Part shown: in pieces, positions 8,164 through 51,315 of the stretch
How the letters are laid out: the number at the start of each line of letters is the position of its first letter
Numbering within the stretch: position 1 is the stretch's first letter
Assembly: GCA_038885615.1 (NCBI GenBank)
Contig: JAVZZP010000002.1
Coordinates: 698-64,697 of the forward strand
Source: Candidatus Pacearchaeota archaeon
GTDB taxonomy: Archaea; Nanobdellota; Nanobdellia; Pacearchaeales; GW2011-AR1
Length of the DNA stretch: 64,000 nt
Direction of reading: 5' to 3'
The notes under the pieces: generated by a model
Seen by the model: only the letters and a program-made list of their open reading frames with translations
Told to the model about the DNA's origin: nothing
Database searches by the model: none
Position numbers and translations under genes: made by a program

Positions 8164-8183
8164 CCTATCAAAACTAATTTAAT

Positions 8184-21576: not shown

Positions 21577-22320
21577 ATGAAAGAAAGAGAGCTAACTTAC
21601 GGTTTTTTGCCTTATGAAGAGGAAAATCAAGGAAAATTTGATAAAAACTCCGGAGCAATTCTAATAAATCCTACTAGCATTATAATATATAGAGAAGATA
21701 ACTCTTCATTTGGTATTAACTCTTCTCTGGCTATTCCTGTTTCTGTTCATGAATTATCACATAAAGTTCATACAGAGTACTCTTCAAAATTTTTTCCAAA
21801 TGGGTTAAATGACCGATTTTCAGAAGATAATTCTGGATTTTATGATTTACAGCAAGAAGGAAACGCAATGTTTAATGAGCAATTATTTTTGTCCGAAGGA
21901 GGTAAGTATTTTTTTGAGAAAGAATTAGCCTTGGCAAGAAAATATTTTAGAGCATATCTGCCTTTAAAAGCAGATTTTATTCTAGCAAGCATTTTGCGTC
22001 AAGAAGATGTTTTAGTTAATAAAACAAAAAGGAGCAAGAATTCCGAAGATTTTAAAGAAAAACTGGTTTTTTTGTCAGGCGTGAAGAGATATTCTATCGA
22101 TCAAGATTCTTTTAATTTTTGTTTGTCCGAGCTTTTTTCATTAGCAAATTATTCTGAAGGATTTTATAGAATGAAAAAACTAGATGACGATTTAAGAAAA
22201 AAAGGCGTTAGTGATGATTTAAGATTCTTTTCTAGATTTGCTGGTTTTTGGGCAGATTTTAATGCCTTTAGATATTTTGTCAATGATGTATTTGTGCCAG
22301 AGTTTTCTAGAGGAAATTAG
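21577..22320 (+). CDS. hypothetical protein with HExxH motif (VHELSHKVH), putative Zn-metallopeptidase-like
   Basis: HExxH motif. Reading frame is open for about 74 codons upstream of this ATG without any start codon. Confidence 0.35.
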   Translation: MKERELTYGFLPYEEENQGKFDKNSGAILINPTSIIIYREDNSSFGINSSLAIPVSVHELSHKVHTEYSSKFFPNGLNDRFSEDNSGFYDLQQEGNAMFNEQLFLSEGGKYFFEKELALARKYFRAYLPLKADFILASILRQEDVLVNKTKRSKNSEDFKEKLVFLSGVKRYSIDQDSFNFCLSELFSLANYSEGFYRMKKLDDDLRKKGVSDDLRFFSRFAGFWADFNAFRYFVNDVFVPEFSRGN

Positions 22321-22354
22321 AAAAATTAATAATCCCTTAATTCCTATTATTTTA

Positions 22355-23386
22355 ATGGGAGTACAAATAGCAGATATTATTCCTAGGAAAGAAATAGATA
22401 TTTCTCTTTTAAAAGGAAAGACAATTGCAGTTGATGCAATGAACACTCTTTATCAATTCTTAACTACGATAAGACAGCAAGACGGAACACCGCTGATGGA
22501 TTCTAAAGGCAAAATAACCTCTCATTTGTCAGGGCTTTTTTATAGAAATATTTCTTTGCTTAGCGAAGGAATAGAACTTGTTTATGTTTTTGATGGAAAA
22601 CCATCCGAGTTAAAAAGAAAAGAACTTGAAGAAAGAGCTGAAAGAAAAAAAGAAGCATTAGAAAAATATGAGGAAGCAAAAGAAAAAGGGGAAATAGAGG
22701 AGATGGCTAAATACTCAAGGCAGTTTGTTAGGATAAATGAAGAAATAATTAAAGAAAGCAAAGAACTTTTATCTGCCTTAGGAATTTCTTTTGTTGAGTC
22801 AATAAATGAGGGAGAAGCAGAAGCCTCTTTTTTGGCAAAATCTAACGTTGTATGGGCCTGTGCTTCACAGGACTATGATTCTTTACTTTATGGAACACCT
22901 AGGCTGATTAGAAATTTAACTCTTGCTAGAAAAAGAAGAACTTCTTCAGGAGTTTTGGTAGATGTTAATCTTGAGTTGATAGAGTTGCAGCATGTTTTAG
23001 AAACATTACAAATAGATAGAGATGGTTTGATTTGTTTAGGAATTATTGTTGGGACAGATTTTAATCCGGGTGGAATCAAAGGACTAGGTCAAAAAAAAGC
23101 TCTTGAAATTGTTAGAAAATACAAATATCCTGCATTGATTTTTGATTATCTGCAAAAAAGCGGAAAATATGTTATTGATTTTATTTGGACAGATATTTTT
23201 AAGGAATTTAAAGAATATAAAGGAAATAATATTTCAAGAGTAGAAAAGAAAAAAATTGATTTTGACAAAGTTAAGAAGATCCTTCTTGAGAGAGATTTTT
23301 CAGAAGAAAGAATAGACAATGCCTTAGAAAAACTTAAAGAGATTCAAGAACAGAAAAAGCAAGTTTCCCTTAAGGATTTTTTTTAG
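22355..23386 (+). CDS. fen: flap endonuclease FEN-1
   Basis: MGVQIADIIP N-terminus; XPG-N/XPG-I motifs (AVDAMNTLYQF, GEAEASFLAK); C-terminal PIP-like tail. Track ORF starts earlier at TTG 22238. Confidence 0.85.
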   Translation: MGVQIADIIPRKEIDISLLKGKTIAVDAMNTLYQFLTTIRQQDGTPLMDSKGKITSHLSGLFYRNISLLSEGIELVYVFDGKPSELKRKELEERAERKKEALEKYEEAKEKGEIEEMAKYSRQFVRINEEIIKESKELLSALGISFVESINEGEAEASFLAKSNVVWACASQDYDSLLYGTPRLIRNLTLARKRRTSSGVLVDVNLELIELQHVLETLQIDRDGLICLGIIVGTDFNPGGIKGLGQKKALEIVRKYKYPALIFDYLQKSGKYVIDFIWTDIFKEFKEYKGNNISRVEKKKIDFDKVKKILLERDFSEERIDNALEKLKEIQEQKKQVSLKDFF

Positions 23387-24183
23387 GGAGAATCTTCTTT
23401 TATTTCTTCTAAGATTTTTATTTCGAAGTTTATTTTATTGAATTCTTCATTTATATAAAAATCTCTTATCGAAGTAAAGTTATAAATTGAGTAAGTTATA
23501 GTTTTATTATTTTTATTTTCTTTTTTTTCTTCTACTTTAACATCGAATAAGTTTTTTGTTATGTTGTTCATACAATCCATGTCTTTTTTACATTCAAGTG
23601 TTTTGTGTATGTCGTAAAAAGGAAGAAGACCTATTTTTTTAAAAATTATCTCTGCATTCAATTTATCTTTTTTTGTAATTTCTGGTACTTTGAATTCTAT
23701 TTCTTTTAGTTTAATATTTATTTTTTCATCATCTAAAAATAAATCAAAGTTTAGGTCTTTTATTTTTTCTATTAAAATTTTTTTGTAAGTATAATTGTTT
23801 TTATTTTGAAAAGAGTTATATTCGTTAATTGCTTTTATTTTTAAGCAGTTTTTAGTTGCATTATTTAAACTTTCATTTATATCTTTTTTCATTTTATCAA
23901 AAAATAAAATCTCTTCAATTTCTTTTTCTTCGTAGAATTTTTTGTTTTTAGTTAAATTGTAGTAACTATAATATGTACATTCTTCAAGATATTTTTCTAA
24001 TCTATACTCCATGTCTTTTTTTTCCAGTTGAATTTCTTCTATACTATCATAGCCTTTCAATCTAAATTCAAACTTTTCATTGTATGAAGCAATTTTGACT
24101 AAAGCATAAACACAAATAATTAAAACCATTATTGTAAATATTACTATATCTAAGTTAGCTTTTTTATTTTTCATTTTTAGCAT
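23383..24183 (-). CDS. pilin-like protein with class-III-type signal peptide (KKA|NL + hydrophobic helix)
   Basis: N-terminus MLKMKNKKANLDIVIFTIMVLIICVYALV; last gene of a 6-gene minus-strand operon. Confidence 0.45.
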   Translation of the reverse strand: MLKMKNKKANLDIVIFTIMVLIICVYALVKIASYNEKFEFRLKGYDSIEEIQLEKKDMEYRLEKYLEECTYYSYYNLTKNKKFYEEKEIEEILFFDKMKKDINESLNNATKNCLKIKAINEYNSFQNKNNYTYKKILIEKIKDLNFDLFLDDEKINIKLKEIEFKVPEITKKDKLNAEIIFKKIGLLPFYDIHKTLECKKDMDCMNNITKNLFDVKVEEKKENKNNKTITYSIYNFTSIRDFYINEEFNKINFEIKILEEIKEDSP

Positions 24184-24800
24184 TCTTCTATGTAATATTT
24201 AATTAAAGCAAAAGATTTTTCTGGAAAGAAGAAACTATAACCGTAACTTAAATCTTCTATATCTGAAAATAATTTAAAATCAGTCTGGAAAGGATATTTT
24301 TTTCCTCTAGGGTATGAAAAACAATAATTTGCTCTTCCTTTTGAGTATGCAGAAACACCATCACCTATATAAGATAGCCCATTAACTATAAAAAAAGAAC
24401 TACAAATTTTGATTATTTTGTTTTTATCATTTAATCTTTTTAGATAGTCTTCCATTTTAGGATTTATTTTATTACTGCAAAATGGGTCAATCTTTTCTAT
24501 AAAATCTTCTGTCAAATAATAAAATTTTTTATTTTCCACTTCTTCTTCAAATAAATAAAAAAGTGCTCTTTGTTCCTCCTGTGATAAAAAAGCAGCTGTT
24601 CCTACAGTTTTTACATCATCTACAATGTTATTCTTTATGTCTTTAATATTTTTTAAGCCAGCAAAAAAAACAAAAATCATCAGAATAAAAAAAATAACTA
24701 TTGTTGCTACAAACCATGAGAGCGTACTTGAAATTTGTGCTTTTTTATTTTTTTTCATTTTAAACAAAACTTTTTTTATTTCCATGATTTTGAGAAGCAA
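24177..24800 (-). CDS. pilin-like protein (KKA|QI class-III-type signal, probable start MKKNKKAQ at about 24761)
   Basis: MKKNKKAQISSTLSWFVATIVIFFILMIFVFFAGL. Confidence 0.45.
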   Translation of the reverse strand: MLLKIMEIKKVLFKMKKNKKAQISSTLSWFVATIVIFFILMIFVFFAGLKNIKDIKNNIVDDVKTVGTAAFLSQEEQRALFYLFEEEVENKKFYYLTEDFIEKIDPFCSNKINPKMEDYLKRLNDKNKIIKICSSFFIVNGLSYIGDGVSAYSKGRANYCFSYPRGKKYPFQTDFKLFSDIEDLSYGYSFFFPEKSFALIKYYIEEC

Positions 24801-25272
24801 CCAATAACTCCACGATTAAGATTTCTTTTTTATTTTCTGTTTCGTTAAAGTAATTTACGAGAATTTTTGTTTGGGAGCAAGCAGGAAGGTATGGCCCTTT
24901 TTGTTTAATTGTGCAATCATTTTCATACGAGAACTGGCCGAATCTAAATTTTTTTATTTCAAATTCATATTCATTCTTTATTTTTAAATGTAAAAATCTT
25001 GTTGTATTTTTTTCTTCTTTAAAAGATTCTTTGTTTAAACCACATTCATCAAAAAACGCCCCCTCATTCCACAAAAGAACTTCATTTTTTAGATAACCAT
25101 TCTTTATAATGCAGTCTAAAATCTTTTGTTGAAGCATAGATATTTCTTGAGCTCTGACATCTATCGGAGAACTAAAATAATTTAGTGTAACTATTGTTAC
25201 AACTAGTCCAACTAATGCTAAAGAGACAAACCACCACAAAGAGAAAATTTTTTCATCGGCTTTTTTATTCAT
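24760..25272 (-). CDS. pilin-like protein (NKKA|DE class-III-type signal)
   Basis: MNKKADEKIFSLWWFVSLALVGLVVTIVTL. Confidence 0.45.
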   Translation of the reverse strand: MNKKADEKIFSLWWFVSLALVGLVVTIVTLNYFSSPIDVRAQEISMLQQKILDCIIKNGYLKNEVLLWNEGAFFDECGLNKESFKEEKNTTRFLHLKIKNEYEFEIKKFRFGQFSYENDCTIKQKGPYLPACSQTKILVNYFNETENKKEILIVELLVASQNHGNKKSFV

Positions 25273-25700
25273 TTTATTCCTATTAAAAGTTTTCCTCCTA
25301 TTGTCCTATTTTGATTATCTACATCTAAATGAATTTTTGTTAAACTCTCATCAATTTCTATTTTAGAGAAAAAATGATAAACAAAACCCCCTTCTTTCTT
25401 TGTTTTAATTTGAACAAAACTTTCTGTTGTATTTATTATTATCATTTCTTCCTGCATAAATTTTGAATCCATTCTATTTTTTTGAGCATTTTTTATTAAG
25501 TCAGTTATATTTATCTCAAAGAAATCCCCTCTTTCTGCCCTATTTAGCATTAACCCAATTTTTTTTGCATAAATTTCTTCATAACGGAGAGCCTCAGAAG
25601 AAACTCTGTTAACAAAAATGAGCATTAACGACATAAAAATTATATTTAGAACTATAAAAATAACAATAGGATAAATCATATCGGCTCTTTTATTTTTCAT
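25269..25700 (-). CDS. pilin-like protein (KRA|DM class-III-type signal)
   Basis: MKNKRADMIYPIVIFIVLNIIFMSLMLIFV. Confidence 0.45.
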   Translation of the reverse strand: MKNKRADMIYPIVIFIVLNIIFMSLMLIFVNRVSSEALRYEEIYAKKIGLMLNRAERGDFFEINITDLIKNAQKNRMDSKFMQEEMIIINTTESFVQIKTKKEGGFVYHFFSKIEIDESLTKIHLDVDNQNRTIGGKLLIGIK

Positions 25701-25737: not shown

Positions 25738-26772
25738 TTAACCAAGGCTTGCAATATAAAATTCTCCTTTTTCGTTAAATTTTTTAAATCCCTCACTTGT
25801 GTAATCTAATAAAAAAACCCCTGCTGCATACTCTGCTTCCGGAAACATTCCTTCGACTTTTAAAGATTTTAAATGAATCCAGTCTCCTGCTCCCCAACCA
25901 GCAACGCCGCCGATCATCGCGCCAGCAAAAGGGTGCCCTGCCTTAAAACCTAATAATCCTCCAACAATTCCGCCAACAGAAGCACCTATAAGCGCCCCCA
26001 TTGCTGTCGGTCTTGCTTCAACATACATTATTGCTTGGGTTGTTGTTAGATTTATTTTAGTATTTAGAAAATCACTAATTAATTCACTACTCTGAGGATT
26101 TCCTGAACTAGTGCTTCCGCTTCCAGAAACGCTTTGACCAAAAAGGATATTCATTGTTTCCCCATCATAAGAATTTCTTAAAAAATCCCAATAAGAAACA
26201 TTCATTTGGGGATGTTTATATCTCAATAAGTAATCATTAAAACCTTCTAACTCTTTTAATTGGGGATTATTATCTTTTTCTGTAACTGTTTCATCAAATT
26301 TTATTCTTGAACATATTATTCCAACTGAACCAACAGATTTTTTTACAGTTATTTCTCTCTTGAAAATTGCATAAGCCCCCCTTCCTAACATGTCCCAGCA
26401 GTCAGCCATTTCTCGTGCAAGCAAAGTTTTTATCTGTTTTTCTGCTTTTTCTTTATCTTTGCTTATTCTATATGTAGAGTATTTTCCTTCCAAAGAACCA
26501 AAATCTTTCTGGCATTCTCCTTTAAGTGGCCACCTGTTTGTTGTTACACAAATTTTTTTTGTTTTGCATTTTAATTGAACTAAGTCTTTTGCTTGTGACT
26601 CTAAAATGCTGTCAGGAATTGTTCCCCTCAAAACAGCACTTGTCTTGCATGTTTCTCTGTCTAAGTCTTCTGTTTTAATTAATTGATAATAAGTTAAAGC
26701 AATAATAACAATTGTAACAATAACGATTATAATTGCCACAATCATTCCAACACTCATTTCTCCTTTTTTCAT
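25738..26772 (-). CDS. pilin-like protein (KKG|EM signal) with C-terminal glycine-zipper domain
   Basis: MKKGEMSVGMIVAIIIVIV; C-terminal GALIGASVGGIVGGLLGFKAGHPFAGAMIGGVAGWGAG (GxxxG repeats). Confidence 0.45.
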   Translation of the reverse strand: MKKGEMSVGMIVAIIIVIVTIVIIALTYYQLIKTEDLDRETCKTSAVLRGTIPDSILESQAKDLVQLKCKTKKICVTTNRWPLKGECQKDFGSLEGKYSTYRISKDKEKAEKQIKTLLAREMADCWDMLGRGAYAIFKREITVKKSVGSVGIICSRIKFDETVTEKDNNPQLKELEGFNDYLLRYKHPQMNVSYWDFLRNSYDGETMNILFGQSVSGSGSTSSGNPQSSELISDFLNTKINLTTTQAIMYVEARPTAMGALIGASVGGIVGGLLGFKAGHPFAGAMIGGVAGWGAGDWIHLKSLKVEGMFPEAEYAAGVFLLDYTSEGFKKFNEKGEFYIASLG

Positions 26773-26901
26773 ATTTCTCCACTAGTCAATTTTTTAATTA
26801 AAAAATATAAAGCGCCAGACAAGAGGACAGTAATTAAAAACCAGATTATATATTTTCCTAATTGTTCAAAATTGCCTTGGGATTTTTTTTGAAATTTTAT
26901 T

Positions 26902-27882
26902 CTAAATTTCATTTTTTATATCTTCTAATTTTTTTCTTATTTCAACAATTTTTTTGATTATAGGAGTTCTTTTTTCTTTTAATTTTTTATATTCTTCATC
27001 ACTTATCTCAGAACCTTTTAATCTTAAAATATATTTGCTAAAAAAACTTATTTTTTGTGATTCATAATTAGTTTTATATTCTATGAAAAGCTTATTAATT
27101 TCAACTGACTCTTTTTCCAATTCACTTAACTCATTTCTGATCTGTTGAATTTCATTTTTTTTATTTTCATTATTTATTGTTTTTTCCAATTCACTTAACT
27201 CATTTTTGATGTCACCTACATTTTTTAAAATTGCAATATGTAATTCATTTAGTGCACTATCAAGTTTTGAGCCACTTTCTGCTTCTAATAAAAAAGAATC
27301 TATAAATTTGTCAATCGTCCATTCTTTTTCTACTCTATTTTTTATAACTACCTCTTTTTCTTTTACTGTTATTTCTAATTCTGTTGGACTCTCTATATAT
27401 ATTGGGAGATTATTTGTATAACCTTCTTTTATTATGTTGATACTTTCTATAATCGTATTAATTATTCCTTCTGGAGGATTGTTATTAATTGTTATAACTT
27501 TTTTACTTGTTTTTTTACATATGCCTTTACTTTCACATTCTCTTAAAGAATTTTTTTTTGTTGCAATTGTTGGAGTTGGACAAATACAAACACAATTTTC
27601 TCCACATGTTTGTGGTTTTTGTTCAAAATTTTGATATGGCCAAGCCAAAATCCACCACCCCTTCGGACTCTCAATAAAAGCATAACCTACTTCTCCTTCT
27701 TTTAAGGAGTTAATAGTATCTTCGATTTCTCTCATCGCAACTTTTGCTTGTTCGTATTCTGTTTTTTGTATTAAAATTCCGATAAGTTTGAACATAAGAA
27801 ATATCATTAAAACAATTCCAATAACACCAAGAACAATTTTTCCAGCTTCTTCTCCGAACCAAAGCCCCTTTTTGTTTTTCAT
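26902..27882 (-). CDS. pilin-like protein (KKG|LW signal) with Cys-rich module and repetitive coiled-coil C-terminus
   Basis: MKNKKGLWFGEEAGKIVLGVIGIVLMIFLMF; CGENCVCICPTP; repeated NELSELEK units (24-bp DNA repeat at about 27114 and 27182). Confidence 0.4.
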   Translation of the reverse strand: MKNKKGLWFGEEAGKIVLGVIGIVLMIFLMFKLIGILIQKTEYEQAKVAMREIEDTINSLKEGEVGYAFIESPKGWWILAWPYQNFEQKPQTCGENCVCICPTPTIATKKNSLRECESKGICKKTSKKVITINNNPPEGIINTIIESINIIKEGYTNNLPIYIESPTELEITVKEKEVVIKNRVEKEWTIDKFIDSFLLEAESGSKLDSALNELHIAILKNVGDIKNELSELEKTINNENKKNEIQQIRNELSELEKESVEINKLFIEYKTNYESQKISFFSKYILRLKGSEISDEEYKKLKEKRTPIIKKIVEIRKKLEDIKNEI

Positions 27883-27923: not shown

Positions 27924-28771
27924 TCACTTTTCTTCTTTTTCTAGACGTCTGATTATTCTAAAACCAACATTATCTCCGAATAAATTCTTGGAAGGAGAGT
28001 AACCGTTATCATAATGGTTTGGAAAATAATTTTTCATTTTTTCTATGCTTTCATCTTCTCCAGGAGTAAAATTTATTCCAGGGGTTATGCAAATAAAACA
28101 AGGATCTCCATCTATCTCTATAAAGCTCCTATCTTCTCTCATTTCTTCATAATTCAAAAAGAAATCTTTTTTTAATCTTCTTAAATTAATATTGACAAAC
28201 TCTGCAGCATTTCCAAGCATATCATAAACTCCATACTGATTTGGTTTTAAGCTTTTTATTGGCATAATTTGGGTTGGTTTCTTTCCAGTATTTCTCTCAA
28301 CTCAGCCCATTCTCTTAAGTTTAGAGCTCCTCTGCTATTTTCCATTTCTTTTACTCTTCTTTCTAAGTCTTTATCAACCCAAAAGATGTTTGCTATTTCT
28401 CTATTTGTTTCTCCATAAATTCCTTCTTTTGGAATATTTTCTCCTCGCCAAGCAAGAAGCCATTCGCCAGCTGTAGGAATTCTATAGTTTTTTCCTGTTC
28501 TTGCAGAAAGATACTCAACAAAACGCAAAGCATTTAGAAAGCTAATTCTTTTCACAGGCATATTCGGATTTCTTATATTTTCAGGTACGCCTCCTTTTCG
28601 GTTATAAGTATCTTCTTTAGGATCATAACCTCTATCTCTTTCTAGATATGCTAACCATTGCCCTATTGTAATTTCACTCTCGCTTATCCAAAAAGGATCA
28701 ACACTTTCAATAAAAGTTTCACCCAAAGGATTCCTGAAAAGTTCTACTTCTCCTCCTTTGAAATAAAGCAT
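27924..28771 (-). pseudogene. formylglycine-generating-enzyme (FGE/SUMF1)-domain lipoprotein gene, disrupted (frameshift plus upstream in-frame stop)
   Basis: ORFs 28256..28771 (RIPTAGEWLLAWRGEN) and 27924..28265 (YGVYDMLGNAAEFV) are two halves of one FGE domain in different frames. An unlisted 45-codon lipobox leader (MEDLKKLGLIGILVASLLTSPICGC, starts about 29040) ends at a TAA. Confidence 0.55.
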
Positions 28772-29085
28772 TTTTATATTTAAATCAGCAAAGTTTTCAA
28801 CATAGTCTTTTCTTTCATCTCTTAGGGCAGATCTCTTTCTATGCCGCTCAATAATTTTTTGTGAAGATTTTTTTGGCGAGGTTGTTTCTTCTTTAGCAGT
28901 TGCTTAAGTTTGATATTCCGTTTTTTCTCTTGTTTCGGATAGTGTTTTTTCTTCCGTATTTTTTCCGCAACCACAAATTGGAGAAGTTAAAAGAGAAGCT
29001 ACCAAGATTCCTATAAGGCCTAACTTCTTTAAATCTTCCATTTTTTTAGAATTATTTTTAAAAATAAAAAAATAACAATATTTTT

Positions 29086-29886
29086 ATGGGTTTCAGGAAA
29101 ACTCTTACAGATATTGTAGGCAGGGGATTATTAGCAGGAACACTTCTTTTTAGTCCGATAAATAGTTATGCCCAACAACAAAGAAAAGCAGAAATTTCGT
29201 CAAGACAACAATATTCTGTTGAAGTTAGTAGAGAAAATCCCGAATTTTCTTTTGAAGTTCCGATGGACTTATACAGAGATACAACAACAAAAAGATTTTC
29301 TGAAGGAAACTTTCCAATTTATTTTGAAGGAAGAATGGATTATGATACAGGTACTTTTTATTTTTCTTATAGTGCTGGAAAAATGACAGAGGAAGGACCT
29401 TTGCTTGGAAAAAGAAATATTGAAGAAGCAAAAAAACTGCCCCCATACAATGTTCCTTTTTTAGATAATGACAAAACAAGAGCTTATTTTGTTTCAACTG
29501 GAGAGAATATTTTTTTGAGTAATTTGAAACAGTGGGAATGGGTTCATAATGGAAAGAATAATCCTCAAAGAGTTTTAATGGATTTTGCTGATACTCCTGC
29601 AGGAAGAATTTTTATGTGGGCAGCCAATAAAGGAGTTGATTATTTAGTTGATAAAGGGGATGCTTTTTTGACAGGAGGTTTGAATCTCGTTCCTTATCTT
29701 GGAGAAGTGGGGGAAGAACTAACTTCCGACTTAATAGACGAATTTGAACTTGGCCCATTAAAAAATTTAAAAAAATATCTTGAAAAAAGAGCAGAGGAAG
29801 CAAAAGAAAGAGAAAAGGTTGAATATAAACTGCATTTTCTAAAGAACGAAAAGCACTTTCTTTTTCTCTTTCTTTTGCTTCACTAA
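29086..29886 (+). CDS. secreted hypothetical protein
   Basis: Signal-like N-terminus (GRGLLAGTLLFSPINSYAQQ). Confidence 0.35.
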   Translation: MGFRKTLTDIVGRGLLAGTLLFSPINSYAQQQRKAEISSRQQYSVEVSRENPEFSFEVPMDLYRDTTTKRFSEGNFPIYFEGRMDYDTGTFYFSYSAGKMTEEGPLLGKRNIEEAKKLPPYNVPFLDNDKTRAYFVSTGENIFLSNLKQWEWVHNGKNNPQRVLMDFADTPAGRIFMWAANKGVDYLVDKGDAFLTGGLNLVPYLGEVGEELTSDLIDEFELGPLKNLKKYLEKRAEEAKEREKVEYKLHFLKNEKHFLFLFLLLH

Positions 29887-29912
29887 AATCTTCTACTGCA
29901 AGGGCTTTCGAA

Positions 29913-30269
29913 ATGACCTTGAGAAATGATGGTTTTGAAGACGAGAAAGTTGCTTTTTTAATAAAATCCTTGCCTGTAGAAAATAAATCAAGAGATTATG
30001 GAACAATTCATGGAGAGATTAGAGACATTGGGATTATTGTTAGCTTACCTTCGCTTGTTGATTTTAATAATTTTTTAGGAACTTGGGAAGTGGCTGACGG
30101 TGTTGGAGCAGGAAGGTATATGAGAAATGCGGTTTATGTTTTAGATATAGATAAGATTACCTTGATTGAAGGATCAAATAAAGATTCAATGCCTTTTGGT
30201 ACTAAAAAAGTTTTTGATAAAAGAACAATTGTTTTTTTCCACCAGAATCATTCAAAGCTGCTTTTTTAA
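29913..30269 (+). CDS. hypothetical protein
   Basis: ORF only. Confidence 0.3.
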   Translation: MTLRNDGFEDEKVAFLIKSLPVENKSRDYGTIHGEIRDIGIIVSLPSLVDFNNFLGTWEVADGVGAGRYMRNAVYVLDIDKITLIEGSNKDSMPFGTKKVFDKRTIVFFHQNHSKLLF

Positions 30270-30289
30270 GAAGTTTATCCCCCAATAGA

Positions 30290-31261
30290 ATGTGGATGAC
30301 TTTTAGTCGTTTTGATAATGAAGAAGAGTTTAGATCTTTTAGAGCTTCCGACTTAGAAAGGTTGTTTGAAGAAGATAGGGTGGAATTGAGATTGGCTGGA
30401 GGGAGAAAATTGTTTTCATCAGAACAAGAAAAAGAATTGGAGAAGTTGGAGGGGGTTTGGGCATTATCTAAAGAAAATGATAACGGAAAAAAGATTGTTT
30501 TCTTAAAAAAACCCCACATAATTCTTTTTGCTAGAGAAGATGAACCTTCAATAGTTTCTAGATATTCTGGATTTGAAAAGGATAGCAGAGGTTATTTTAG
30601 ATTTGATATTCTTAATGATTTCTTAAACGAGGGAGAAATTATGGAAGCACAAAGTCTTTTTTTTGAACCTCGCACTAAAATGGATAGGGAATTTATAACT
30701 CTTCATTTGAGAATAGAAGAGGAGGATATGGCTTTTGAGTTTAATAAAGAGAATATAAATGTAGAAAATCTTCGGTACTATTTTTATCCAAACCTATCAA
30801 GAAACATGCTCAATAAGGATTTCGTTATTGTTGGAATGAATTATCCGCTATTAAATAAAAAATTAAGGGGCGATTTTGGGACTATTTCTTTGGCAGAGGG
30901 AGGTAAGTTTGTTGTTCCTAAAAAGAGCGATCATCCTTTAGAAGATGGTAAACCTTTTACAATAGAAGAAGTTAGGTCTTTCAGAGGGTTGCCTTTTTTA
31001 TTTGTGAATGGAAGAAAAAAAGTAGAAGTTAACCATCCTGCTAAAGGGACTTTAGAAATATCTGTTTCGATGAATGGAGTTTTAACAGCTGACAAAGATG
31101 GATCTCCTATTTTTTCTATGTGTTTTACCGACTTTAATGAAGAAAATAACCTTACAAGAAATTTATCTGAAAAAGAAAACAATGAGGTCGTTTTAGAAAA
31201 ACTTCGAATAGCTGCAGGAGCTAGTTTTTTAGATGGTTATTATATCCTTAGTGAGAAGTAA
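30290..31261 (+). CDS. hypothetical protein
   Basis: ORF only. Confidence 0.3.
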   Translation: MWMTFSRFDNEEEFRSFRASDLERLFEEDRVELRLAGGRKLFSSEQEKELEKLEGVWALSKENDNGKKIVFLKKPHIILFAREDEPSIVSRYSGFEKDSRGYFRFDILNDFLNEGEIMEAQSLFFEPRTKMDREFITLHLRIEEEDMAFEFNKENINVENLRYYFYPNLSRNMLNKDFVIVGMNYPLLNKKLRGDFGTISLAEGGKFVVPKKSDHPLEDGKPFTIEEVRSFRGLPFLFVNGRKKVEVNHPAKGTLEISVSMNGVLTADKDGSPIFSMCFTDFNEENNLTRNLSEKENNEVVLEKLRIAAGASFLDGYYILSEK

Positions 31262-31350
31262 CACTTAATCTTCTTATGATTTCATCGTAATCGACTTTAT
31301 AGGAACTAATTTCCATTAGTCTGTTTCTATTTTTAAGGAGGATATTTTTT

Positions 31351-31620
31351 CTAAGAATCCAAGATTATCATTTGGACTCTCAACATTCTTCCACTTTGAT
31401 AAAATATTATTTTTTCTCCTTCAAAAACTTTATTATCTCGATTGGCGGATCTCCACACGTCTTTTTTTATGTATTTAAAATTGTTTCTGGCTCCAATTAC
31501 ATCTTTATAGTATCTAACTGCCCAAGCTCTTTCTCCGATTTCTTTATTAAGTTTATTTATTTCTTCTTGAGCAAAGGTTTCTATATTGTCTGTTGATCTT
31601 TTTTCAACTATTTCAATCAT
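31351..31620 (-). CDS. hypothetical small protein
   Basis: ORF only. Confidence 0.25.
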   Translation of the reverse strand: MIEIVEKRSTDNIETFAQEEINKLNKEIGERAWAVRYYKDVIGARNNFKYIKKDVWRSANRDNKVFEGEKIIFYQSGRMLRVQMIILDS

Positions 31621-31707: not shown

Positions 31708-32745
31708 TTAAGGAGATCTTTTACCAAGAAAAGTATTATTTATCTCAGAGTAGTTTAAAAAAATATTTGTTTTGCAACCATATGGTTTTCCAGAAATATC
31801 TTTTAAAATATTATCTGGCATCTTTAATTCTTCTGGTTTAATATAATTTGAATAAATTCCCGTTATCCAAGATTTTCCTTCAATAGTACAATAAATAATT
31901 ATTCTTCCATCTTCAGAAATTTCCCCTACTGAGGATAATCTTCGTCCCCTAGCAGTAGTTAATTGCCCAAAATAAAGAAAGATTCTATCATTTTCTTTTT
32001 TTAAATAAAATTTGTCAACATTATTTCTTAATAATCCAAATACTAGATAGTCTTTAAGGTTTATAATTAAGTATTCTTCTTTTTTTTCTAAAATCCTCCT
32101 TCTAGTTTCTCCCCTCAAATCAACTATTCTTGGTTCTTCAACGCCCCAATAAATTAAGTTTAGCTTTCTTTCTAGGTCATCCCACGCCTCTTTTTTTTGG
32201 CAGACATAATTTGGGCCGCCCAAACCTTTTATTGTTGAGTTGTCTAAAAGAATAAGAGCTTTAAATAATTCTTCTCCTGTTTCCAACTCCTTTTTTAGAA
32301 CTTCTAAAAATTTAGAGCTTCCTCTAGTGAAAACAGAGTTATCAATATATATTTTTCTTTCGTGCGGGCCATTGAGAATATTTGAGCCAAGATATACTTC
32401 TCTAAAAGGTAAGGGTAGATTAATTATAATTTTGTCTCCTCCAACAACCCATTGTATTTCTGTCCTTTTGTAATTGCCACTTTCTTTTATATAAAAAAAA
32501 GAATTACTTGTTCCACTTTTAAATCTCCCAACTTCTTCATATCCATCTGGGCAAATATCAACTTGAATATTGTCTGGTACAATTTCTATATCTTCCCCAT
32601 CATTTCTTTGGTATTCTGGAAGATTTTTTATCCAGAGGTCAATCCTAGTTCTAAAAAGAAAGAAAGCAACCAGCAAGACGACCAGTATTACTACTATAAA
32701 AATTATAATAGGATCGCTTTGTAATTGTGCTTTTTTCTTTCCCAT
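31708..32745 (-). CDS. pilin-like secreted protein (KKA|QL class-III-type signal)
   Basis: MGKKKAQLQSDPIIIFIVVILVVLLVAFFLF. Confidence 0.4.
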   Translation of the reverse strand: MGKKKAQLQSDPIIIFIVVILVVLLVAFFLFRTRIDLWIKNLPEYQRNDGEDIEIVPDNIQVDICPDGYEEVGRFKSGTSNSFFYIKESGNYKRTEIQWVVGGDKIIINLPLPFREVYLGSNILNGPHERKIYIDNSVFTRGSSKFLEVLKKELETGEELFKALILLDNSTIKGLGGPNYVCQKKEAWDDLERKLNLIYWGVEEPRIVDLRGETRRRILEKKEEYLIINLKDYLVFGLLRNNVDKFYLKKENDRIFLYFGQLTTARGRRLSSVGEISEDGRIIIYCTIEGKSWITGIYSNYIKPEELKMPDNILKDISGKPYGCKTNIFLNYSEINNTFLGKRSP

Positions 32746-32748
32746 TTA

Positions 32749-32920
32749 TTCTCTTCCCCCAAATCTAAGAAAACCTTTGAAGTAATCTATTCCGTTAGAT
32801 AATTTTCCCCTTAATGCAAATATTATCAATAAAATTATTATCAATACTATTATCCCTAATATGAACCATCCTGTAAACTCTTGTGGCATTGAAAGAGCTC
32901 TTTTTTTAGATTTTTTCATA
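32749..32920 (-). CDS. small pilin-like protein (57 aa, below ORF-track cutoff; KRA|LS signal)
   Basis: Hand translation: MKKSKKRALSMPQEFTGWFILGIIVLIILLIIFAL...; stop TAA abuts ATG of 31708..32745. Confidence 0.3.
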
Positions 32921-45875: not shown

Positions 45876-48119
45876 ATGTTTAAGGATAAATCTTTATTTT
45901 CAACGGAAATAATCAGAAAAGAAGGTGAAAATATTCTTTATATTAATTTTATTGGTTTAGAATTTACTCCCTCTCTTGTAAACTCTCCCGAGATAATGGC
46001 AAGAGTCATCGATATTTTATCGCAAAACCCGAATGTTTCTAGAATGGTCTTTGTTTCTTACAAAAATTATAATTTTAATTTTGAGCAAGTTAACATGCTT
46101 TTAGAATTGGCGGATTTTTATAACTTTTTAATGCAAAAAGAAAAGATTCTCTCGAGTAAAAAGCTTTCATTAGTAAAAGATCCTCAAAGAGCTTTTAATT
46201 TTTTATCTGATTTTTTAATAAATCGTCTTAAACAAGATCCTGTTTTGGCATTTAAGTTATTAGAAGAGGAAATGAATTTTGTTGAAAAATTTGATGAGAA
46301 TTATTTTAATCTTTTAGACGGAATACATGAAAAATTTTCCAAACTAAAGCTAATTACAGTACTTGGAAATTATATTTATGATAGTTCTTTTAAGGGAAGA
46401 GAAATTTACTCAAAAATTTTTTATCCAGAGATAACTCCAAATTTCATTTTTTCCAGGGTTTTGTCAAAAATTCCTTCAGAATCAGAAATAGTAGATGAAT
46501 ATTCTATAGGAACTAATTTTGATAGGAGCATTGTTACCATAATAAAAGATAAGGAAAGTGCAAGATATGTTTATCATTTGTCTTGTCCCGAATATTCTCT
46601 GAAGGAAAGTTATCAGATTTTGCTTCTATCCGCTAAAAAGGTTTTATCAGAACATAAACCAACAACAGAAGAGTTTAACGATTTTGAAAGAACGAGACAG
46701 GTTTTTTTCAATGTTGCTAAAGATTTGTTAAGAGATTTATCTTCTTCTCAGGGAATTCCAATAAATAGTTCTGACATGGATCTTTTAGCTTCTATTCTTG
46801 TTAGAAATACTATTGGTTTTGGCATATTAGAGATAATACTGCAAGATGAGAATGTTCAAGACATTTTGATAAACTCCCCCACTTCAGCCTCTCCCGTTTT
46901 TATAAAACACAATAATTTTGATGAATGCTCTTCAAATATTTTTGTTTCTTACGAAGACGTAGAATCTTGGGCAGCAAAATTTAGGATGCTCTCTGGAAGG
47001 GCATTAGACGAGGCACACCCTATTTTAGATTGCTCTTTAAATTTAGAAAAAGCAAGTGCGAGGGTCGCGATTGTCCAGCAGCCTCTTTCCTCTTCAGGAA
47101 TATCTTACTCTTTAAGAAGACATAGGGATAAGCCATGGACTTTGCCTCTTTTTATAAAAAATAAGACTATAAATGGTCTTTGTGCGGGTTTGCTCTCTTT
47201 TTTAGTTGATGGTGCTAGAACGATGCTTGTTGCTGGGGCAAGGAGTTCAGGAAAGACATCTTTGCTTGGTAGTTTGATGATAGAAATCATGCCAAAGTAT
47301 AGAATAATTACAGTTGAAGATACTATCGAACTACCGGTTTTACCAATGAAAAGATTAGGGTATGACATATTGTCTATGAAAGTAAGAAGCGCTTTGACAG
47401 GAGAATCCAATGAGGTCTCAGCAGAAGAAGGAATTAGGGCCTCTTTAAGGTTGGGCGATTCGGCACTTATTGTCGGTGAAATAAGAAGCGAAGAAGCAAA
47501 ATCTTTGTATGAGGCGATGAGGGTTGGTGCTTTAGCAAACGTTGTAGCAGGTACAATTCATGGTGTTTCTCCATATGGAGTATTTGACAGAGTTGTAAAT
47601 GACCTCAATGTTCCTATCACTAGCTTTAAGGCTACGGATTGTATAATTATTGTAAATCCTATAAAAACTCCCGATGGTATGAGATCTATGAGAAGATTGC
47701 TTCAATTGACAGAAGTAAGAAAACATTGGAACAAAGATCCTTTAGATGAAGGCGGTTTTGTTGATTTAATGAAATATGACGTTGAAAAAGACCAACTGCT
47801 TCCTTCGGATGATTTAATTAACGGGGATTCTGAGATAATAAAATCAATAGCTTCAAATGTCAAGGGGTGGGCTGGAAAGTGGGATGCAGTATGGGAGAAT
47901 ATTTTATTAAGACAAAAAATAAAAGAGGAATTAGTTTCTTTATCAGAAAAAACAAAAATAAATGATTTTTTAGAAGCGGAGTTTGTTGTTAAATCAAATA
48001 ATGAATTCCATGAGATTTCCCAAAAAGTAAGAGAAGAACTTGGTTCTTTGTCTTCGGAAGATATTTTTTCAAGATGGAAAGAGTGGCTTGAAAAAGAGGC
48101 TAAAAAGTTTAATCTTTAA
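45876..48119 (+). CDS. type IV pilus/archaellum-family assembly ATPase (FlaI/TadA/VirB11 superfamily) with long N-terminal domain
   Basis: Walker A GARSSGKTS, FlaI-type RIITVEDTIEL, His-box LIVGEIRSEEA. Confidence 0.8.
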   Translation: MFKDKSLFSTEIIRKEGENILYINFIGLEFTPSLVNSPEIMARVIDILSQNPNVSRMVFVSYKNYNFNFEQVNMLLELADFYNFLMQKEKILSSKKLSLVKDPQRAFNFLSDFLINRLKQDPVLAFKLLEEEMNFVEKFDENYFNLLDGIHEKFSKLKLITVLGNYIYDSSFKGREIYSKIFYPEITPNFIFSRVLSKIPSESEIVDEYSIGTNFDRSIVTIIKDKESARYVYHLSCPEYSLKESYQILLLSAKKVLSEHKPTTEEFNDFERTRQVFFNVAKDLLRDLSSSQGIPINSSDMDLLASILVRNTIGFGILEIILQDENVQDILINSPTSASPVFIKHNNFDECSSNIFVSYEDVESWAAKFRMLSGRALDEAHPILDCSLNLEKASARVAIVQQPLSSSGISYSLRRHRDKPWTLPLFIKNKTINGLCAGLLSFLVDGARTMLVAGARSSGKTSLLGSLMIEIMPKYRIITVEDTIELPVLPMKRLGYDILSMKVRSALTGESNEVSAEEGIRASLRLGDSALIVGEIRSEEAKSLYEAMRVGALANVVAGTIHGVSPYGVFDRVVNDLNVPITSFKATDCIIIVNPIKTPDGMRSMRRLLQLTEVRKHWNKDPLDEGGFVDLMKYDVEKDQLLPSDDLINGDSEIIKSIASNVKGWAGKWDAVWENILLRQKIKEELVSLSEKTKINDFLEAEFVVKSNNEFHEISQKVREELGSLSSEDIFSRWKEWLEKEAKKFNL

Positions 48120-48143: not shown

Positions 48144-50354
48144 TTGTCTTATCTTAAAAGAGGGAAGATGGATTCAAAAGAATTGATCAGGGCCTATGAA
48201 AATAGGTTAAGTGAGGAGATTAATAATTTTAGTAATGAAGGATATAGTACAAGTTATAAAGAATTTCTGAAAAGTTATGAGGTGCCTTTGTCTTCTTATG
48301 AAAGATGGTGCAAGGCCTTAGGAAACATTGTTAAACTAAACCCCTCTAAAAAAGAAGAAGAAAAAATTCAAAAATTCATTCAACAAGCGCATTTAAATAT
48401 AACTCCTTCAGAAGCACTTTCTTTTTCTTTTATGTCTTTTTTTGTTATTTTCATCTTAGGGTTTTTTTTGGTTTTGGGTTATTGGTATCTTTTTACCAGT
48501 GGAAATTTTGACGATTTTCCTTTCGGGGTTTTTCTTCTTATTTTGTTTTGTTCTATATTTATTTTTTATTTTACTTATGGAATGCCTGAGAGATTGGCTT
48601 TTTTGTGGAGATTAAAGGCAAGCACTCAGATGGTGCCTGCTGTTCTATACACCGTTATATACATGAAGAATACTTCTAATTTTGAGAAAGCTATCGCTTT
48701 TGCTGCGCAACATTTGGATCCACCTCTTGCTTTGGATTTTAAAAAAATATTTTGGAATGTGGAAGTAGGAAAATATAAAAATGTCAAGGAGAGCGTTGAT
48801 GCCTATTTAGAAGAGACATGGAGAGGATATTCTTTAGAATTTATAGAGGCCTTTCAGCTAATTGAGTCTAGTTTGTATGAGCCAAATGAAGAAAGGAGAA
48901 TTTCTTTTTTGGAAAGGGCTTTGCAAGTTATTTTAGACGGAGTTTATGACAGAATGTTAAGATACACACATGAAGTAAAATCTCCTTTGACAAACATTTA
49001 TATGTTAGGGATTATTTTGCCTACACTTTCTTTGGCGATAATTCCTTTGGCTTCGGCGATGCTTCAGGGCTTTATTAAAGCAGCACATTTGTTTTTTTTG
49101 TTTAATGTTATTGTGCCTTTTGGGGTTTTTTATTTGACCTGGAATGTTATAAGCAAGAGACCTGGTGGTTATGGAAATAGCTCTTATTTAGAAAAAAATC
49201 CTTTGTACTATAAGTATATCGATAAATCTGCTTATGTCAAGGCTTTCTTTTTAGTTTTTCCTTTATTGTTAATAGGTTTTATTCCATTAATTTTTATGCA
49301 TACTCCTCTTTACGAGTGGATTGGTCTAGAAAGCAGAGAAATTCTCTTAGAGAAAATAGGATTAGGTTTTTTTGGAAAAAATACAGGAGTTTTTGGTTTT
49401 ATAAATACAAGCGAGGGTTTTAAAGGACCATTTAGTTTTATTTCAGTTATCTTTTCTTTGTTTATACCTCTTTCTATTGCATTGTTTTTTATTACTGCTT
49501 TTAAAATAAGAACAGAAGAACTTATCAGAGAAAGAAAGCGTTATAAAGAAGTTGAAGAGAGTTTTACTTCTTCTTTATTTCAATTAGGCAACAGGCTTGG
49601 AGATGGTATGCCTGCAGAAATTGCATTTGGTAAGGTTGCAGAAACCTCTAAAGGAAGTTCTTCAGAGGGATTTTTTTTAGCAGTAGAACAGAATATAACT
49701 TCTTTGGGGATGTCAGTTAGAGATGCAATATTTGATGAAAATCGTGGTGCGATTATATTTTACCCTTCTTCTTTGATTGCTATTTCTATGAAAATAATGG
49801 TTGAATCAGTAAGAAAAGGATTGCAGATTGCAGCTAGAAGTTTGTTGTCTATAGCAGAATATGTAAAGAATATGAAGAAAGTTACAGATAGGATGAAAGA
49901 TTTATTGGCAGATATTGTTTCAGATATGAAATCAAATATGACTTTTTTAGCTCCCTTGCTTTCAGGAATTATTATAGGGCTTTCTGTTATGATTACTTCA
50001 ATTTTGTTAATACTTAAAAATTTTACTTCAGTTGTTGGCGGTGAGGCAGGAAATATCGGGAGTTTTGGTGAGGGCGGTCTAGCCAGCATTATTAAGATGT
50101 TTAATGTTGAGGAAATGATTCCACCTTTTTGGTTGCAGATTATCATAGGAATTTATCTTATTCAAATAATATTTATTTTAACATCTACTTTAGTTGCTAT
50201 TAGTGAAGGAGAAGATGATTTGGAAAGAACTTATCAAACTGCAAAAAATCTTCAAACAGGAATTACTCTTTATTTTGTTATTGCTTTAATTTCAATTTTA
50301 ATCTTGTCCTTTGTTGGGGCAGTTGTTTTAAAAGGAGTTTTAAGTGAGGGATAG
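48144..50354 (+). CDS. polytopic membrane platform protein (FlaJ/TadC-like, T2SS-F family)
   Basis: 736 aa, at least 8 TMs in two clusters; immediately downstream of the ATPase. Confidence 0.55.
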   Translation: MSYLKRGKMDSKELIRAYENRLSEEINNFSNEGYSTSYKEFLKSYEVPLSSYERWCKALGNIVKLNPSKKEEEKIQKFIQQAHLNITPSEALSFSFMSFFVIFILGFFLVLGYWYLFTSGNFDDFPFGVFLLILFCSIFIFYFTYGMPERLAFLWRLKASTQMVPAVLYTVIYMKNTSNFEKAIAFAAQHLDPPLALDFKKIFWNVEVGKYKNVKESVDAYLEETWRGYSLEFIEAFQLIESSLYEPNEERRISFLERALQVILDGVYDRMLRYTHEVKSPLTNIYMLGIILPTLSLAIIPLASAMLQGFIKAAHLFFLFNVIVPFGVFYLTWNVISKRPGGYGNSSYLEKNPLYYKYIDKSAYVKAFFLVFPLLLIGFIPLIFMHTPLYEWIGLESREILLEKIGLGFFGKNTGVFGFINTSEGFKGPFSFISVIFSLFIPLSIALFFITAFKIRTEELIRERKRYKEVEESFTSSLFQLGNRLGDGMPAEIAFGKVAETSKGSSSEGFFLAVEQNITSLGMSVRDAIFDENRGAIIFYPSSLIAISMKIMVESVRKGLQIAARSLLSIAEYVKNMKKVTDRMKDLLADIVSDMKSNMTFLAPLLSGIIIGLSVMITSILLILKNFTSVVGGEAGNIGSFGEGGLASIIKMFNVEEMIPPFWLQIIIGIYLIQIIFILTSTLVAISEGEDDLERTYQTAKNLQTGITLYFVIALISILILSFVGAVVLKGVLSEG

Positions 50355-50499: not shown

Positions 50500-51315
50500 A
50501 TGGAAGCTGAAATTTTTTTCTTTATTTTAGTTTTGCTCTTCATTGCTTCTTTGCAGGATTTTAAAAGAAGAGAGATTGATGTTTGGTTGAACTTATTTAT
50601 TTTCTTTTGTGGTCTTTCTTTTGTTATCTTCAAATCATTTTTTTACAATGAAGTTGCATATTTAGTCAATTTTTCTTTTTTGTTAGTTTTTGTTTTTATT
50701 TTAGCTCATTTAATTTATTTTGGAAAAGTTTTTGCTGGCGGAGATTGTTCTTTGCTTTTTTGTCTTTCTCCTTTTTTCGTATCAATAGACTTTTTTAGTA
50801 GTTTTAAGAATTTCTTATTTTTTTTTGTAGTACTTTTTGCTTTGGGTTCTTTTTATGGTTTTTTTTGGAGTTTTTCTCTTTTTGTTAAGAATTTTGCATT
50901 TGTAAGAAAAAAATTGTTTTCTGGTAGGGTTTTAATCTCCTCGGCTTTTATTTTTCTTTTTTTATTTTTGTCCTTCTTTTTTAAAGAGTTTATTTTTATT
51001 TTTTTTATCGGATTTTTTTTATTTTTTAGTTATTTATTTTTAAAGTTGGAAAAAGAGCTTTTTATCAAGGAAGTTTTAACGAAGGATTTAAGAGAAGGAG
51101 ATTGGCTTGAAAAAGATTTGAGGGTCAATGGAAAAATTATTAAAAGCACATTTGATGGTCTTTCAAAAAAAGATATTTACTTTTTAAGAAATAACTTAAG
51201 AAAGGTTAAGATAAAAGACGGAATTCCCTATGGTTTTGCTTTTTTTCTTGCCTGGATAGCCTATTACTTTTTAGATTTTATTATGGAATTCTTGGTTTCA
51301 AAATTGGTAATCTAG
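50500..51315 (+). CDS. prepilin/preflagellin peptidase (FlaK/PibD family, A24-like aspartyl protease)
   Basis: ASLQDFKRREID (cf. FlaK ASVQDFRSREIE) and AGGD second catalytic Asp motif; multi-TM. Confidence 0.7.
   Translation: MEAEIFFFILVLLFIASLQDFKRREIDVWLNLFIFFCGLSFVIFKSFFYNEVAYLVNFSFLLVFVFILAHLIYFGKVFAGGDCSLLFCLSPFFVSIDFFSSFKNFLFFFVVLFALGSFYGFFWSFSLFVKNFAFVRKKLFSGRVLISSAFIFLFLFLSFFFKEFIFIFFIGFFLFFSYLFLKLEKELFIKEVLTKDLREGDWLEKDLRVNGKIIKSTFDGLSKKDIYFLRNNLRKVKIKDGIPYGFAFFLAWIAYYFLDFIMEFLVSKLVI

Follow-up and report, generated by a model that had tools for sequence, protein, structure and literature searches.

The type IV pilins described in archaea, among them EpdA-E of Methanococcus maripaludis, AapA/B and UpsA/B of Sulfolobus and PilA1-6 of Haloferax, have a basic leader that ends in [KR][GA] and is followed by a hydrophobic helix, and they are encoded in operons of several pilins that are associated with an ATPase of the T2SSE type, a polytopic platform protein and a peptidase of family A24. 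Both characteristics recur in a 64,000-nucleotide stretch of a Candidatus Pacearchaeota archaeon genome (GCA_038885615.1, contig JAVZZP010000002.1, positions 698 to 64,697 of the forward strand; the whole stretch is called the window below), in which a gene at 25738-26772 on the minus strand (the target) encodes a prepilin-type protein with a Cys-rich head and an inserted glycine-zipper hairpin. The system to which the target belongs resembles the type IV pilus systems of archaea and bacteria in its signal motif, its peptidase and its linkage to assembly machinery; the hairpin within the head appears to be a variation on a pilin-like subunit, with a mechanism that we infer. The target very probably serves as an accessory subunit of prepilin type in a type IV pilus-like system specific to DPANN archaea; this system appears confined to the Pacearchaeota/Woesearchaeota/Nanoarchaeota branch of that group. 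The favoured reading of the hairpin, to which as a whole a probability of roughly 0.5 is assigned, is that it spans the archaeon's own membrane, that its glycine faces pack with other pilin helices, and that the protein nucleates or anchors the fibre at its base, the topology and the basal role being deductions.

The target differs from the archaeal type IV pilins in that it has no sequence or profile likeness to the described pilin families, in its large head (approximately 300 residues, with no fold match), and in the conserved two-helix hydrophobic hairpin within that head. Conserved cysteines are common in archaeal type IV pilus components (PMC4858521), as they are in the target. The lineages of the target fell outside the 2016 census of archaeal type IV pili, in which the cognate pilins of nanoarchaea could not be identified (PMC4858521). 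Literature searches returned no description of a glycine zipper or membrane hairpin inside a pilin head, nor of a DPANN pilin operon, but only unrelated mentions; the first-pass annotation, made from the sequence alone, had called a zipper unexpected in a pilin, and these searches found no glycine zipper described in an archaeal pilin.

The minor-pilin and pseudopilin complexes of bacteria, GspH-I-J-K of type II secretion and FimU-PilV-W-X-E of type IVa pili, likewise bring together several pilin-like proteins of different sizes, one of them much larger than the others. Such complexes have a presumed role in starting or capping the fibre. They differ from the target family, which has E/D at position +1, in having E at +5, and none of them has a membrane hairpin in the head or detectable homology to the target. 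FlaF and FlaG of the archaellum set a precedent for pilin-like archaeal proteins that are anchored N-terminally and stay at the membrane or S-layer as components of the machinery and not of the fibre, and offer a functional analogy for the favoured model; unlike the target, they are small beta-sandwich proteins with one membrane helix, without likeness to it in sequence or predicted fold, and the target locus lacks the archaellum-specific genes of archaellum loci. The glycine-zipper domains of bacterial outer-membrane lipoproteins (PF05433/PF13441/PF13488, as in E. coli SlyB, PDB 7ojf) resemble the hairpin in having two (G/A/S)xxxG-striped helices joined by a short turn, and their profiles match weakly to exactly that stretch, but the target is archaeal and of prepilin type, a minority of its family matches these profiles, and all of its own scores are below threshold.

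The target protein and its family

The open reading frame proposed at first pass is real, with an ATG start and 344 codons. Its parts, defined with the help of 19-residue Kyte-Doolittle hydropathy (KD19), the predicted free energy of membrane insertion (Hessa dG) and the predicted local distance difference test of AlphaFold models (pLDDT), are as follows:

25738..26772, minus strand: target gene, prepilin-type protein of 344 residues, its Cys-rich head interrupted by a Gly-zipper hairpin (open reading frame list, ATG start)
26761..26772, minus strand: leader MKKG, with predicted prepilin-peptidase cleavage after Gly4 (family-wide motif)
26683..26760, minus strand: N-terminal hydrophobic helix, residues 5-30, a transmembrane segment like alpha1N (KD19, Hessa dG, AlphaFold)
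26017..26682, minus strand: core of the head domain, residues 31-252, with six invariant Cys and the EMADCWDMLGRG motif (conservation, pLDDT)
25876..26016, minus strand: inserted hairpin, residues 253-299 (GxxxG statistics, charge bias, base composition, pLDDT below 50)
25741..25875, minus strand: C-terminal segment, residues 300-344, folding back onto the head (AlphaFold strands, Cys co-occurrence)

The protein begins MKKG-EMSVGMIVAIIIVIVTIVIIAL, a short basic leader followed by about 22 hydrophobic residues, and the first-pass description of this N-terminus as class-III-like is sustained: it fits the FlaFind-type pattern [KRDE][GA][ALIFQMVED][ILMVTAS]x3. A type IV pilin-like signal, that is, a basic leader ending in [KR]-[GA] and running directly into some 20 hydrophobic residues, is present, and a lipobox Cys is absent. 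The N-terminal helix reaches a KD19 of 3.19 (3.43 at the best-placed window) and an additive Hessa dG of -5.5. Among 160 aligned members of the family, the successive positions of the leader motif are occupied by K in 127, by K/R in 146, by G/A in 149 (G in 100, A in 49) and by E/D in 121 (E in 84, D in 37), followed by [ILMV] and then [TS], and the basic leader is mostly 3-12 residues long. The leader MKKG is most likely removed by the A24 peptidase encoded at 50500-51315.

A word-indexed search recovered 21 homologues, nearly all of full length and all with the same fusion architecture; the zipper-type hairpin, whose recurrence in relatives was one of the checks proposed at first pass, is kept in all 21 and is not a one-off. 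A profile search of 1.84 billion cluster representatives (50% identity) yielded 2,449 proteins at E<=1e-3, of which 455 reach E<=1e-30, and the majority of the matches span the whole profile. A 'hypothetical protein' from a metagenome-assembled genome (MAG) of Candidatus Pacearchaeota has the same sequence as the target (100% identity), and the source names read for family members are all 'hypothetical protein', save one 'uncharacterized membrane protein'. Scans of the target and its operon neighbours against Pfam and NCBIfam matched no pilin family and gave only sub-threshold Gly-zipper matches. The window itself (guanine plus cytosine, GC, approximately 30%) has archaeal gene content, including FEN1 (22238-23386) and a family-B DNA polymerase (18054-20405).

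A scan of genomes located 63 loci, all but one from MAGs of Pacearchaeota, Woesearchaeota or Nanoarchaeota or from MAGs titled only 'archaeon'. The exception, locus L023 on a 379-kb contig (DAOTCN010000002.1) titled 'Candidatus Paceibacterota bacterium', carries the same archaeal gene set in its usual order, from the archaeal ATPase (E=9e-283) through the platform-like gene and the operon to the A24 peptidase, and is probably a mislabelled archaeal MAG.

The glycine-zipper hairpin

The hairpin consists of an RPT boundary, helix 1 (TAMGALIGASVGGIVGGLLGF), the turn KAGHP and helix 2 (FAGAMIGGVAGWGAG), followed by DW; the zipper peptide quoted at first pass, GALIGASVGGIVGGLLGFKAGHPFAGAMIGGVAGWGAG, is exact and occupies residues 259-296. 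Residues 256-297 contain nine GxxxG pairs, compared with 4.02±1.42 in composition-preserving shuffles (n=20,000, p=0.00095), which bears out the first-pass claim of stacked GxxxG repeats beyond what composition would give, and Gly spacing is enriched a second time at lag 8, with (G/A/S)xxxGxxxG stripes repeated on two adjacent helices. The DNA encoding the hairpin (25876-26016) has a GC content of 55% in a window of 30%, so its Gly/Ala content is evidently kept against mutational bias. The first-pass annotation had made the zipper a C-terminal module of 70 residues; it spans approximately residues 256-297, ends 47 residues short of the C-terminus, and is inserted between two strands of the head.

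Essentially all members of the family have an insert between these two strands (mean length 76 residues, 44% G/A/S/T, mean maximum KD19 1.67), with at least two hydrophobic segments at the hairpin site in 59 of 68 intact genomic copies and median lengths of 18 residues for helix 1, 3 for the turn and 18 for helix 2. GxxxG spacing is enriched family-wide (observed/expected 1.79 at lag 4 and 1.53 at lag 8), yet its periodicity is individually significant in only 35% of members, and GxxxG occurs 0-2 times in many distant ones. As the hairpin is family-wide and the periodicity is found in about one third, the glycine zipper of the window is an elaboration, at the level of its clade, of a hydrophobic, small-residue-rich hairpin that is older. 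Locus L069 contains tandem paralogues, of which the first (7027-7971) has a strong Gly-zipper hairpin and the second (8012-8887) a degenerate, non-hydrophobic segment in its place, with core and C-terminal motif intact; the hairpin is thus a separable module, since a paralogue that lost its hydrophobicity keeps the core and tail. The possibility, raised at first pass, that the module is merely an ordinary membrane anchor without conservation therefore holds in one half: a membrane anchor it may be, but its presence, position and composition are conserved across the family.

That the hairpin might be a true homologue of the Gly-zipper domains of bacterial outer-membrane lipoproteins (SlyB/Pcp/17-kDa antigen, YMGG, YiaD), acquired horizontally and fused to a pilin, is suggested by weak matches to PF13441 (E=5e-4), PF05433 (E=0.0066), the YiaD model NF053611 (E=2.8e-4) and the SlyB structure 7ojf (E=0.4), but is highly improbable. 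The scores lie under the curated cut-offs for PF13441 (20.1 vs 28.9 bits), PF05433 (16.8 vs 24.2), NF053611 (20.6 vs 175) and PF13488 (12.4 vs 25), so that the profile check proposed at first pass for YMGG and Gly-zipper_Omp domains gave nothing above gathering score, and among 40 diverse members of the family E<=0.01 is reached by four for PF13441, two for PF05433 and two for PF13488, with no other Gly-zipper model exceeding two. Within the family the hairpin is older than the zipper periodicity, and an origin by horizontal transfer of a SlyB/YMGG-type domain was rejected for that reason. Since the insert is hydrophobic but non-periodic in two thirds of the family, the simplest reading is that the zipper arose where it stands, from a hairpin already present, and that the matches are compositional. 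Judged by these profile scores, the target is not a member of the Pfam glycine-zipper families, and the likeness is convergent or compositional.

The head domain and the C-terminal segment

Two AlphaFold runs, with 21 and 40 sequences, gave predicted template modelling scores (pTM) of 0.72 and 0.77, respectively. In these models the N-terminal helix (7-30) continues to residue 50 and is followed by an alpha/beta head, with 139 residues at a pLDDT of at least 90 and the blocks of the head core (residues 31-252) mostly above 85. A beta-strand at 245-252 leads into a low-confidence stretch at 259-310, in which the hairpin has a pLDDT below 50, and beyond the hairpin come a predicted helix (295-305), a strand (315-322), a helix (325-332) and a strand (336-339), with mean pLDDT of 78, 90 and 79 in the successive ten-residue blocks of residues 311-340. 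Both of the latter strands are placed in the head domain. The zipper is consequently an insertion within the head and not a C-terminal appendage, and the last 45 residues, which had been taken at first pass for a free amphipathic tail, are modelled as a helix and two beta-strands that rejoin the head.

Invariant or nearly invariant residues in the 160-member alignment include Cys 42, 69, 75, 87, 125 and 154, W126, G130, G132, Y181 and Y194, and the C-terminal segment has the conserved motifs GIFLxDY..EGF and, at its end, FxIAS. Cys151 of a core strand and Cys335 of the tail are both present in 112 sequences (approximately 70% of the family), both missing in 45, and found one without the other in 3; their joint occurrence lends independent support to a tail that rejoins the head, with the proviso that the Fisher p-value tallies sequences and not independent evolutionary events. 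The total number of Cys per member is predominantly even (mostly 6, 8, 10 or 12), which together with the six invariant Cys makes the head fit an extracytoplasmic, fully disulfide-bonded domain: probably some 220 residues outside the cell, stabilised by what would be three disulfides. The pilin fold has a long N-terminal helix with its C-terminal half packed on a beta-sheet head; the model of pTM 0.77 has a helix at 7-50 and then an alpha/beta head, and Foldseek gave no match to a solved pilin at E<0.1.

Proposed membrane topology of the hairpin

Across the family, the turn of the hairpin holds 0.198 K/R and 0.015 D/E per residue, and in 61% of members the turn has one K/R or more and lacks acidic residues, as against balanced 12-residue flanks (K/R and D/E of 0.115 and 0.118 before the hairpin, 0.092 and 0.116 after it). 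A turn that is rich in K/R and nearly free of acidic residues, in a protein with a basic leader, therefore points to a positive-inside topology with the turn in the cytoplasm.

In the favoured model, the N-terminal hydrophobic helix would lie in the cytoplasmic membrane with the head outside the cell. The hairpin would leave the head after strand 245-252 and cross the archaeon's own membrane, the turn being in the cytoplasm and both ends outside, and the chain would return to the head at strand 315-322, past the predicted helix 295-305. The mature protein would then have three membrane helices, the chain passing outward from the cytoplasmic leader through the N-terminal helix to the external head, inward through helix 1 to the cytoplasmic turn, and outward again through helix 2 to the external tail. 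Its glycine faces would let the hairpin pack very closely against alpha1 helices of the eight other pilin-like proteins of the operon (two helix-only mini-pilins included) or against further copies of the target, and the target would serve to nucleate or anchor the filament where its base is embedded in the membrane, not as a bulk subunit of the fibre.

Hydrophobicity was assessed on a crude additive dG scale with the values of Hessa et al. 2005, on which the family medians are +3.8 for the best hairpin helix and -4.6 for the N-terminal helix. A positive dG was dropped as evidence against membrane integration of the hairpin after calibration on the transporter transmembrane helices of the same window, which have a median of +1.6, with 47% above +2; helix 1 of the window protein (+2.35) is inside the range of these genuine transmembrane helices, and because they score alike the scale does not discriminate for helix 1. 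What distinguishes the hairpin from these transporter helices is its content of small residues (0.42 vs 0.21).

The first-pass annotation had proposed instead a tip protein that inserts into a host membrane, for which no evidence was found: the charged turn is unfavourable for crossing a foreign bilayer and points to the archaeon's own membrane. In the fuller form of this proposal, the target would be extracted from the membrane together with a priming complex and sit at the pilus tip, and its marginally hydrophobic Gly-zipper hairpin would insert or oligomerise in the membrane of the host cell on which the archaeon lives. Glycine zippers are typical of oligomeric membrane-inserting proteins, multi-gene pilin-like operons are of the kind that form tip or priming complexes in bacteria (GspHIJK, FimU-PilVWX), the hairpin is unstructured relative to the head in AlphaFold models, and its lower hydrophobicity compared with the N-terminal helix would make extraction cheap. 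DPANN archaea are moreover attached to hosts, and pili have been implicated in the contact (PMC9938205). Such a role is nevertheless unlikely, as the nearly acid-free turn would have to cross a foreign bilayer, the calibrated hydrophobicity does not set the hairpin apart from ordinary transmembrane helices, the zipper periodicity is significant in about a third of members while the hairpin is universal, and sequence searches and fold searches of PDB and BFVD found no likeness to a pore-forming toxin or fusogen, nor to membrane-inserting glycine-zipper proteins of the kind of VacA-type channels or contact-dependent Gly-zipper bacteriocins. More specifically, it is rather doubtful that the zipper hairpin is a deployable element which, after extraction, would insert at the fibre tip into the host membrane, possibly as an oligomer, to anchor the fibre or form a channel.

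Several observations weigh against the membrane-spanning hairpin at the fibre base. The turn is uncharged in 32% of members, and helix 2 is weakly hydrophobic (KD19 0.83 in the window protein, family median additive dG approximately +6.9). The low pLDDT of the hairpin means that AlphaFold does not place it relative to the N-terminal helix, and the co-occurrence of Cys151 and Cys335 may go back to a single event or a few events in evolution and not to many separate ones. The head has no fold relative among solved pilins or any other structure of PDB or BFVD in Foldseek searches with the two AlphaFold models (best E 0.3-1.6, TM-scores approximately 0.1, nothing in PDB at E<0.1), and a sequence-profile search of PDB likewise found no relative of the head. 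The platform-like protein of the locus (see below) has no T2SSF match at the Pfam threshold (PF00482, E=0.41 in the window; 2 of 12 homologues match, best 1.3e-4). Finally, to our knowledge all known minor pilins leave the membrane and end in the fibre, and a subunit retained in the membrane would be an exception.

The pilin-like operon and its assembly machinery

The pilin-like nature of the target, asserted at first pass, is upheld by its prepilin-type signal, by prepilin-type operon neighbours, and by a link across genomes to a T2SSE ATPase, a platform-like protein and an A24 peptidase. These genes are listed below with co-occurrence counts obtained by searching the window proteins against the open reading frames of 69 related loci; hyphens mark the end of the leader, and TM stands for a transmembrane segment.

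26902..27882, minus strand: g1, 326-residue pilin-like protein, KKG + TM, six Cys, coiled-coil C-terminal half (with the target in 58 of 69 loci)
26769..26912, minus strand: g2, 47-residue helix-only pilin-like open reading frame, its stop overlapping the target start (ATGA; homologues in 14 loci)
25269..25700, minus strand: g4, 143-residue pilin-like protein, KRA-D + TM (46 of 69 loci)
24760..25272, minus strand: g5, 170-residue pilin-like protein, KKA-D + TM (58 of 69 loci)
24177..24800, minus strand: g6, pilin-like protein, likely true start MKKNKKA-QISS at approximately 24758 (31 of 69 loci)
23383..24183, minus strand: g7, 266-residue pilin-like protein, KKA-N + TM, last gene of the operon, abutting FEN1 (15 of 69 loci)
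31708..32745, minus strand: p345, 345-residue pilin-like protein, second operon gene in relatives (14 loci, 1.5-5 kb upstream of the target)
32746..32919, minus strand: p57, 57-residue helix-only pilin-like open reading frame, first operon gene in relatives (37 loci, usually directly after the platform-like gene)
45876..48119, plus strand: T2SSE secretion/pilus assembly ATPase, TadA/FlaI-like (PF00437 E=2.6e-13; at most 10 kb from the target in 28 of 69 loci)
48144..50354, plus strand: 736-residue polytopic membrane protein, putative platform of TadC/FlaJ type (adjoins the ATPase; near the target in 36 of 69 loci)
50500..51315, plus strand: A24 prepilin (type IV leader) peptidase (PF01478, 30.4 bits vs cut-off 26.5; downstream of the operon in 18 of 69 loci)

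The same-strand neighbours g1, g2 and g4-g7 all start with a basic leader, K-K/R-[GA] and a hydrophobic stretch, and the stops and starts of the open reading frames in the operon overlap or nearly abut; the overlap between the stop of g2 and the start of the target indicates co-translation of these two. In more distant genomes the order is fixed: T2SSE-type ATPase, 736-residue polytopic protein, p57, p345, g1, g2, target, g4, g5, g6, (g7) and A24 peptidase. In the window, the machinery (45876-51315) is approximately 20 kb away from the target operon, which has moved next to FEN1 and PolB, and a block of about 3.8 kb parts p345/p57 from g1, the two parts being contiguous in relatives (L001 and L003). 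Within this block (27924-31700), the open reading frames at 27924-28265 and 28256-28771 match consecutive parts of an FGE-sulfatase domain and are probably a frameshifted pseudogene; the plus-strand open reading frames at 29086-31261 have no Pfam match.

The ATPase is matched by the TadA and FlaI models at E of approximately 1e-38, below the model cut-offs. The 736-residue protein, which is about 50% identical across distant MAGs (E of approximately 1e-230 in 36 loci) and always near the ATPase, has some ten hydrophobic segments and two soluble domains, which, along with its adjacency to the ATPase, fits the topology of a platform; it has no Pfam or PDB match at threshold, and looks like a putative, very divergent platform of TadC/FlaJ type.

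An ordinary envelope protein with three transmembrane segments and an uncleaved signal anchor, its neighbours being merely similar envelope proteins, would account for the lack of any Pfam or NCBIfam pilin model that matches the target, for a head that matches no solved pilin in fold, and for the position of the window operon some 20 kb from the ATPase and beside FEN1 and PolB. It would not account for K-[KR]-[GA]-[ED] at a fixed distance before the hydrophobic stretch in 160 members and in all partner families, nor for the many distant genomes in which the operon is framed by the ATPase/platform-like genes on one side and the prepilin peptidase on the other, and this explanation is quite improbable. 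Archaeal pilins also evolve too fast for detection by profiles (PMC4858521).

A clear second hydrophobic region sets the target apart from the other eight pilin-like proteins; in g6 there is one weak segment, barely above threshold. At the other extreme, p57 and g2 (57 and 47 residues) each comprise a basic leader and a single hydrophobic helix, followed by a tail of some 10-25 residues, and, being of the size of Flp, are candidates for the major pilin of a very thin fibre. The hairpin could be a protein-protein element, two extra helices that would pack by their glycine faces in the helical core of a thin fibre, which the target would cap or adapt to its large head. The conservation of the helix-only open reading frames in the operon (p57 in 37 loci, g2 in 14) suits this idea, as do the small-residue stripes (lag-4 1.79, lag-8 1.53), which favour tight helix-helix packing, the length of the hairpin helices (approximately 18 residues), which resembles that of the hydrophobic part of the mini-pilins, and the confinement of a clear second hydrophobic region to the target. 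It leaves the positive-inside charge bias of the turn unexplained, however, and presumes that the mini-pilins are the major subunit; we regard it as unlikely in comparison with a hairpin that spans the archaeon's own membrane.

Just upstream of the pilus ATPase, 39914-44776 on the plus strand encodes a 1,620-residue protein with two Laminin_G_3 (concanavalin-like lectin) stretches and a sub-threshold match to DUF7035 (24.8 bits vs cut-off 27). A homologue adjoins the target gene in locus L028, and the protein may be a surface adhesin tied to the pilus locus. Elsewhere in the window, a 1,337-residue open reading frame (58348-62361, plus strand) has no Pfam match at E<=0.01, and a tRNA-Met (35785-35856, plus strand) overlaps the listed GTG start of a 541-residue open reading frame (35799-37424, plus strand), the real start of which is therefore probably further downstream.

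Significance for DPANN archaea

Pacearchaeota and Woesearchaeota are abundant, uncultured and host-dependent, and pili are the main suspects in their attachment to hosts and exchange of material with them. The analysis defines for these lineages a conserved locus with genes for an ATPase and a platform-like protein, for nine pilin-like products, of which two are helix-only mini-pilins, and for a prepilin peptidase. It also draws attention to a large family without annotation, which combines a head that matches no known fold with a putative membrane-active hairpin and would justify a new protein-family entry. If a host-inserting hairpin were true, it would be the anchoring or channel-forming step of symbiont-host contact in Pacearchaeota and Woesearchaeota. 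Either way, whether it anchors the pilus in the symbiont or engages another membrane, the hairpin is a concrete and testable candidate for a key step of DPANN cell-surface biology.

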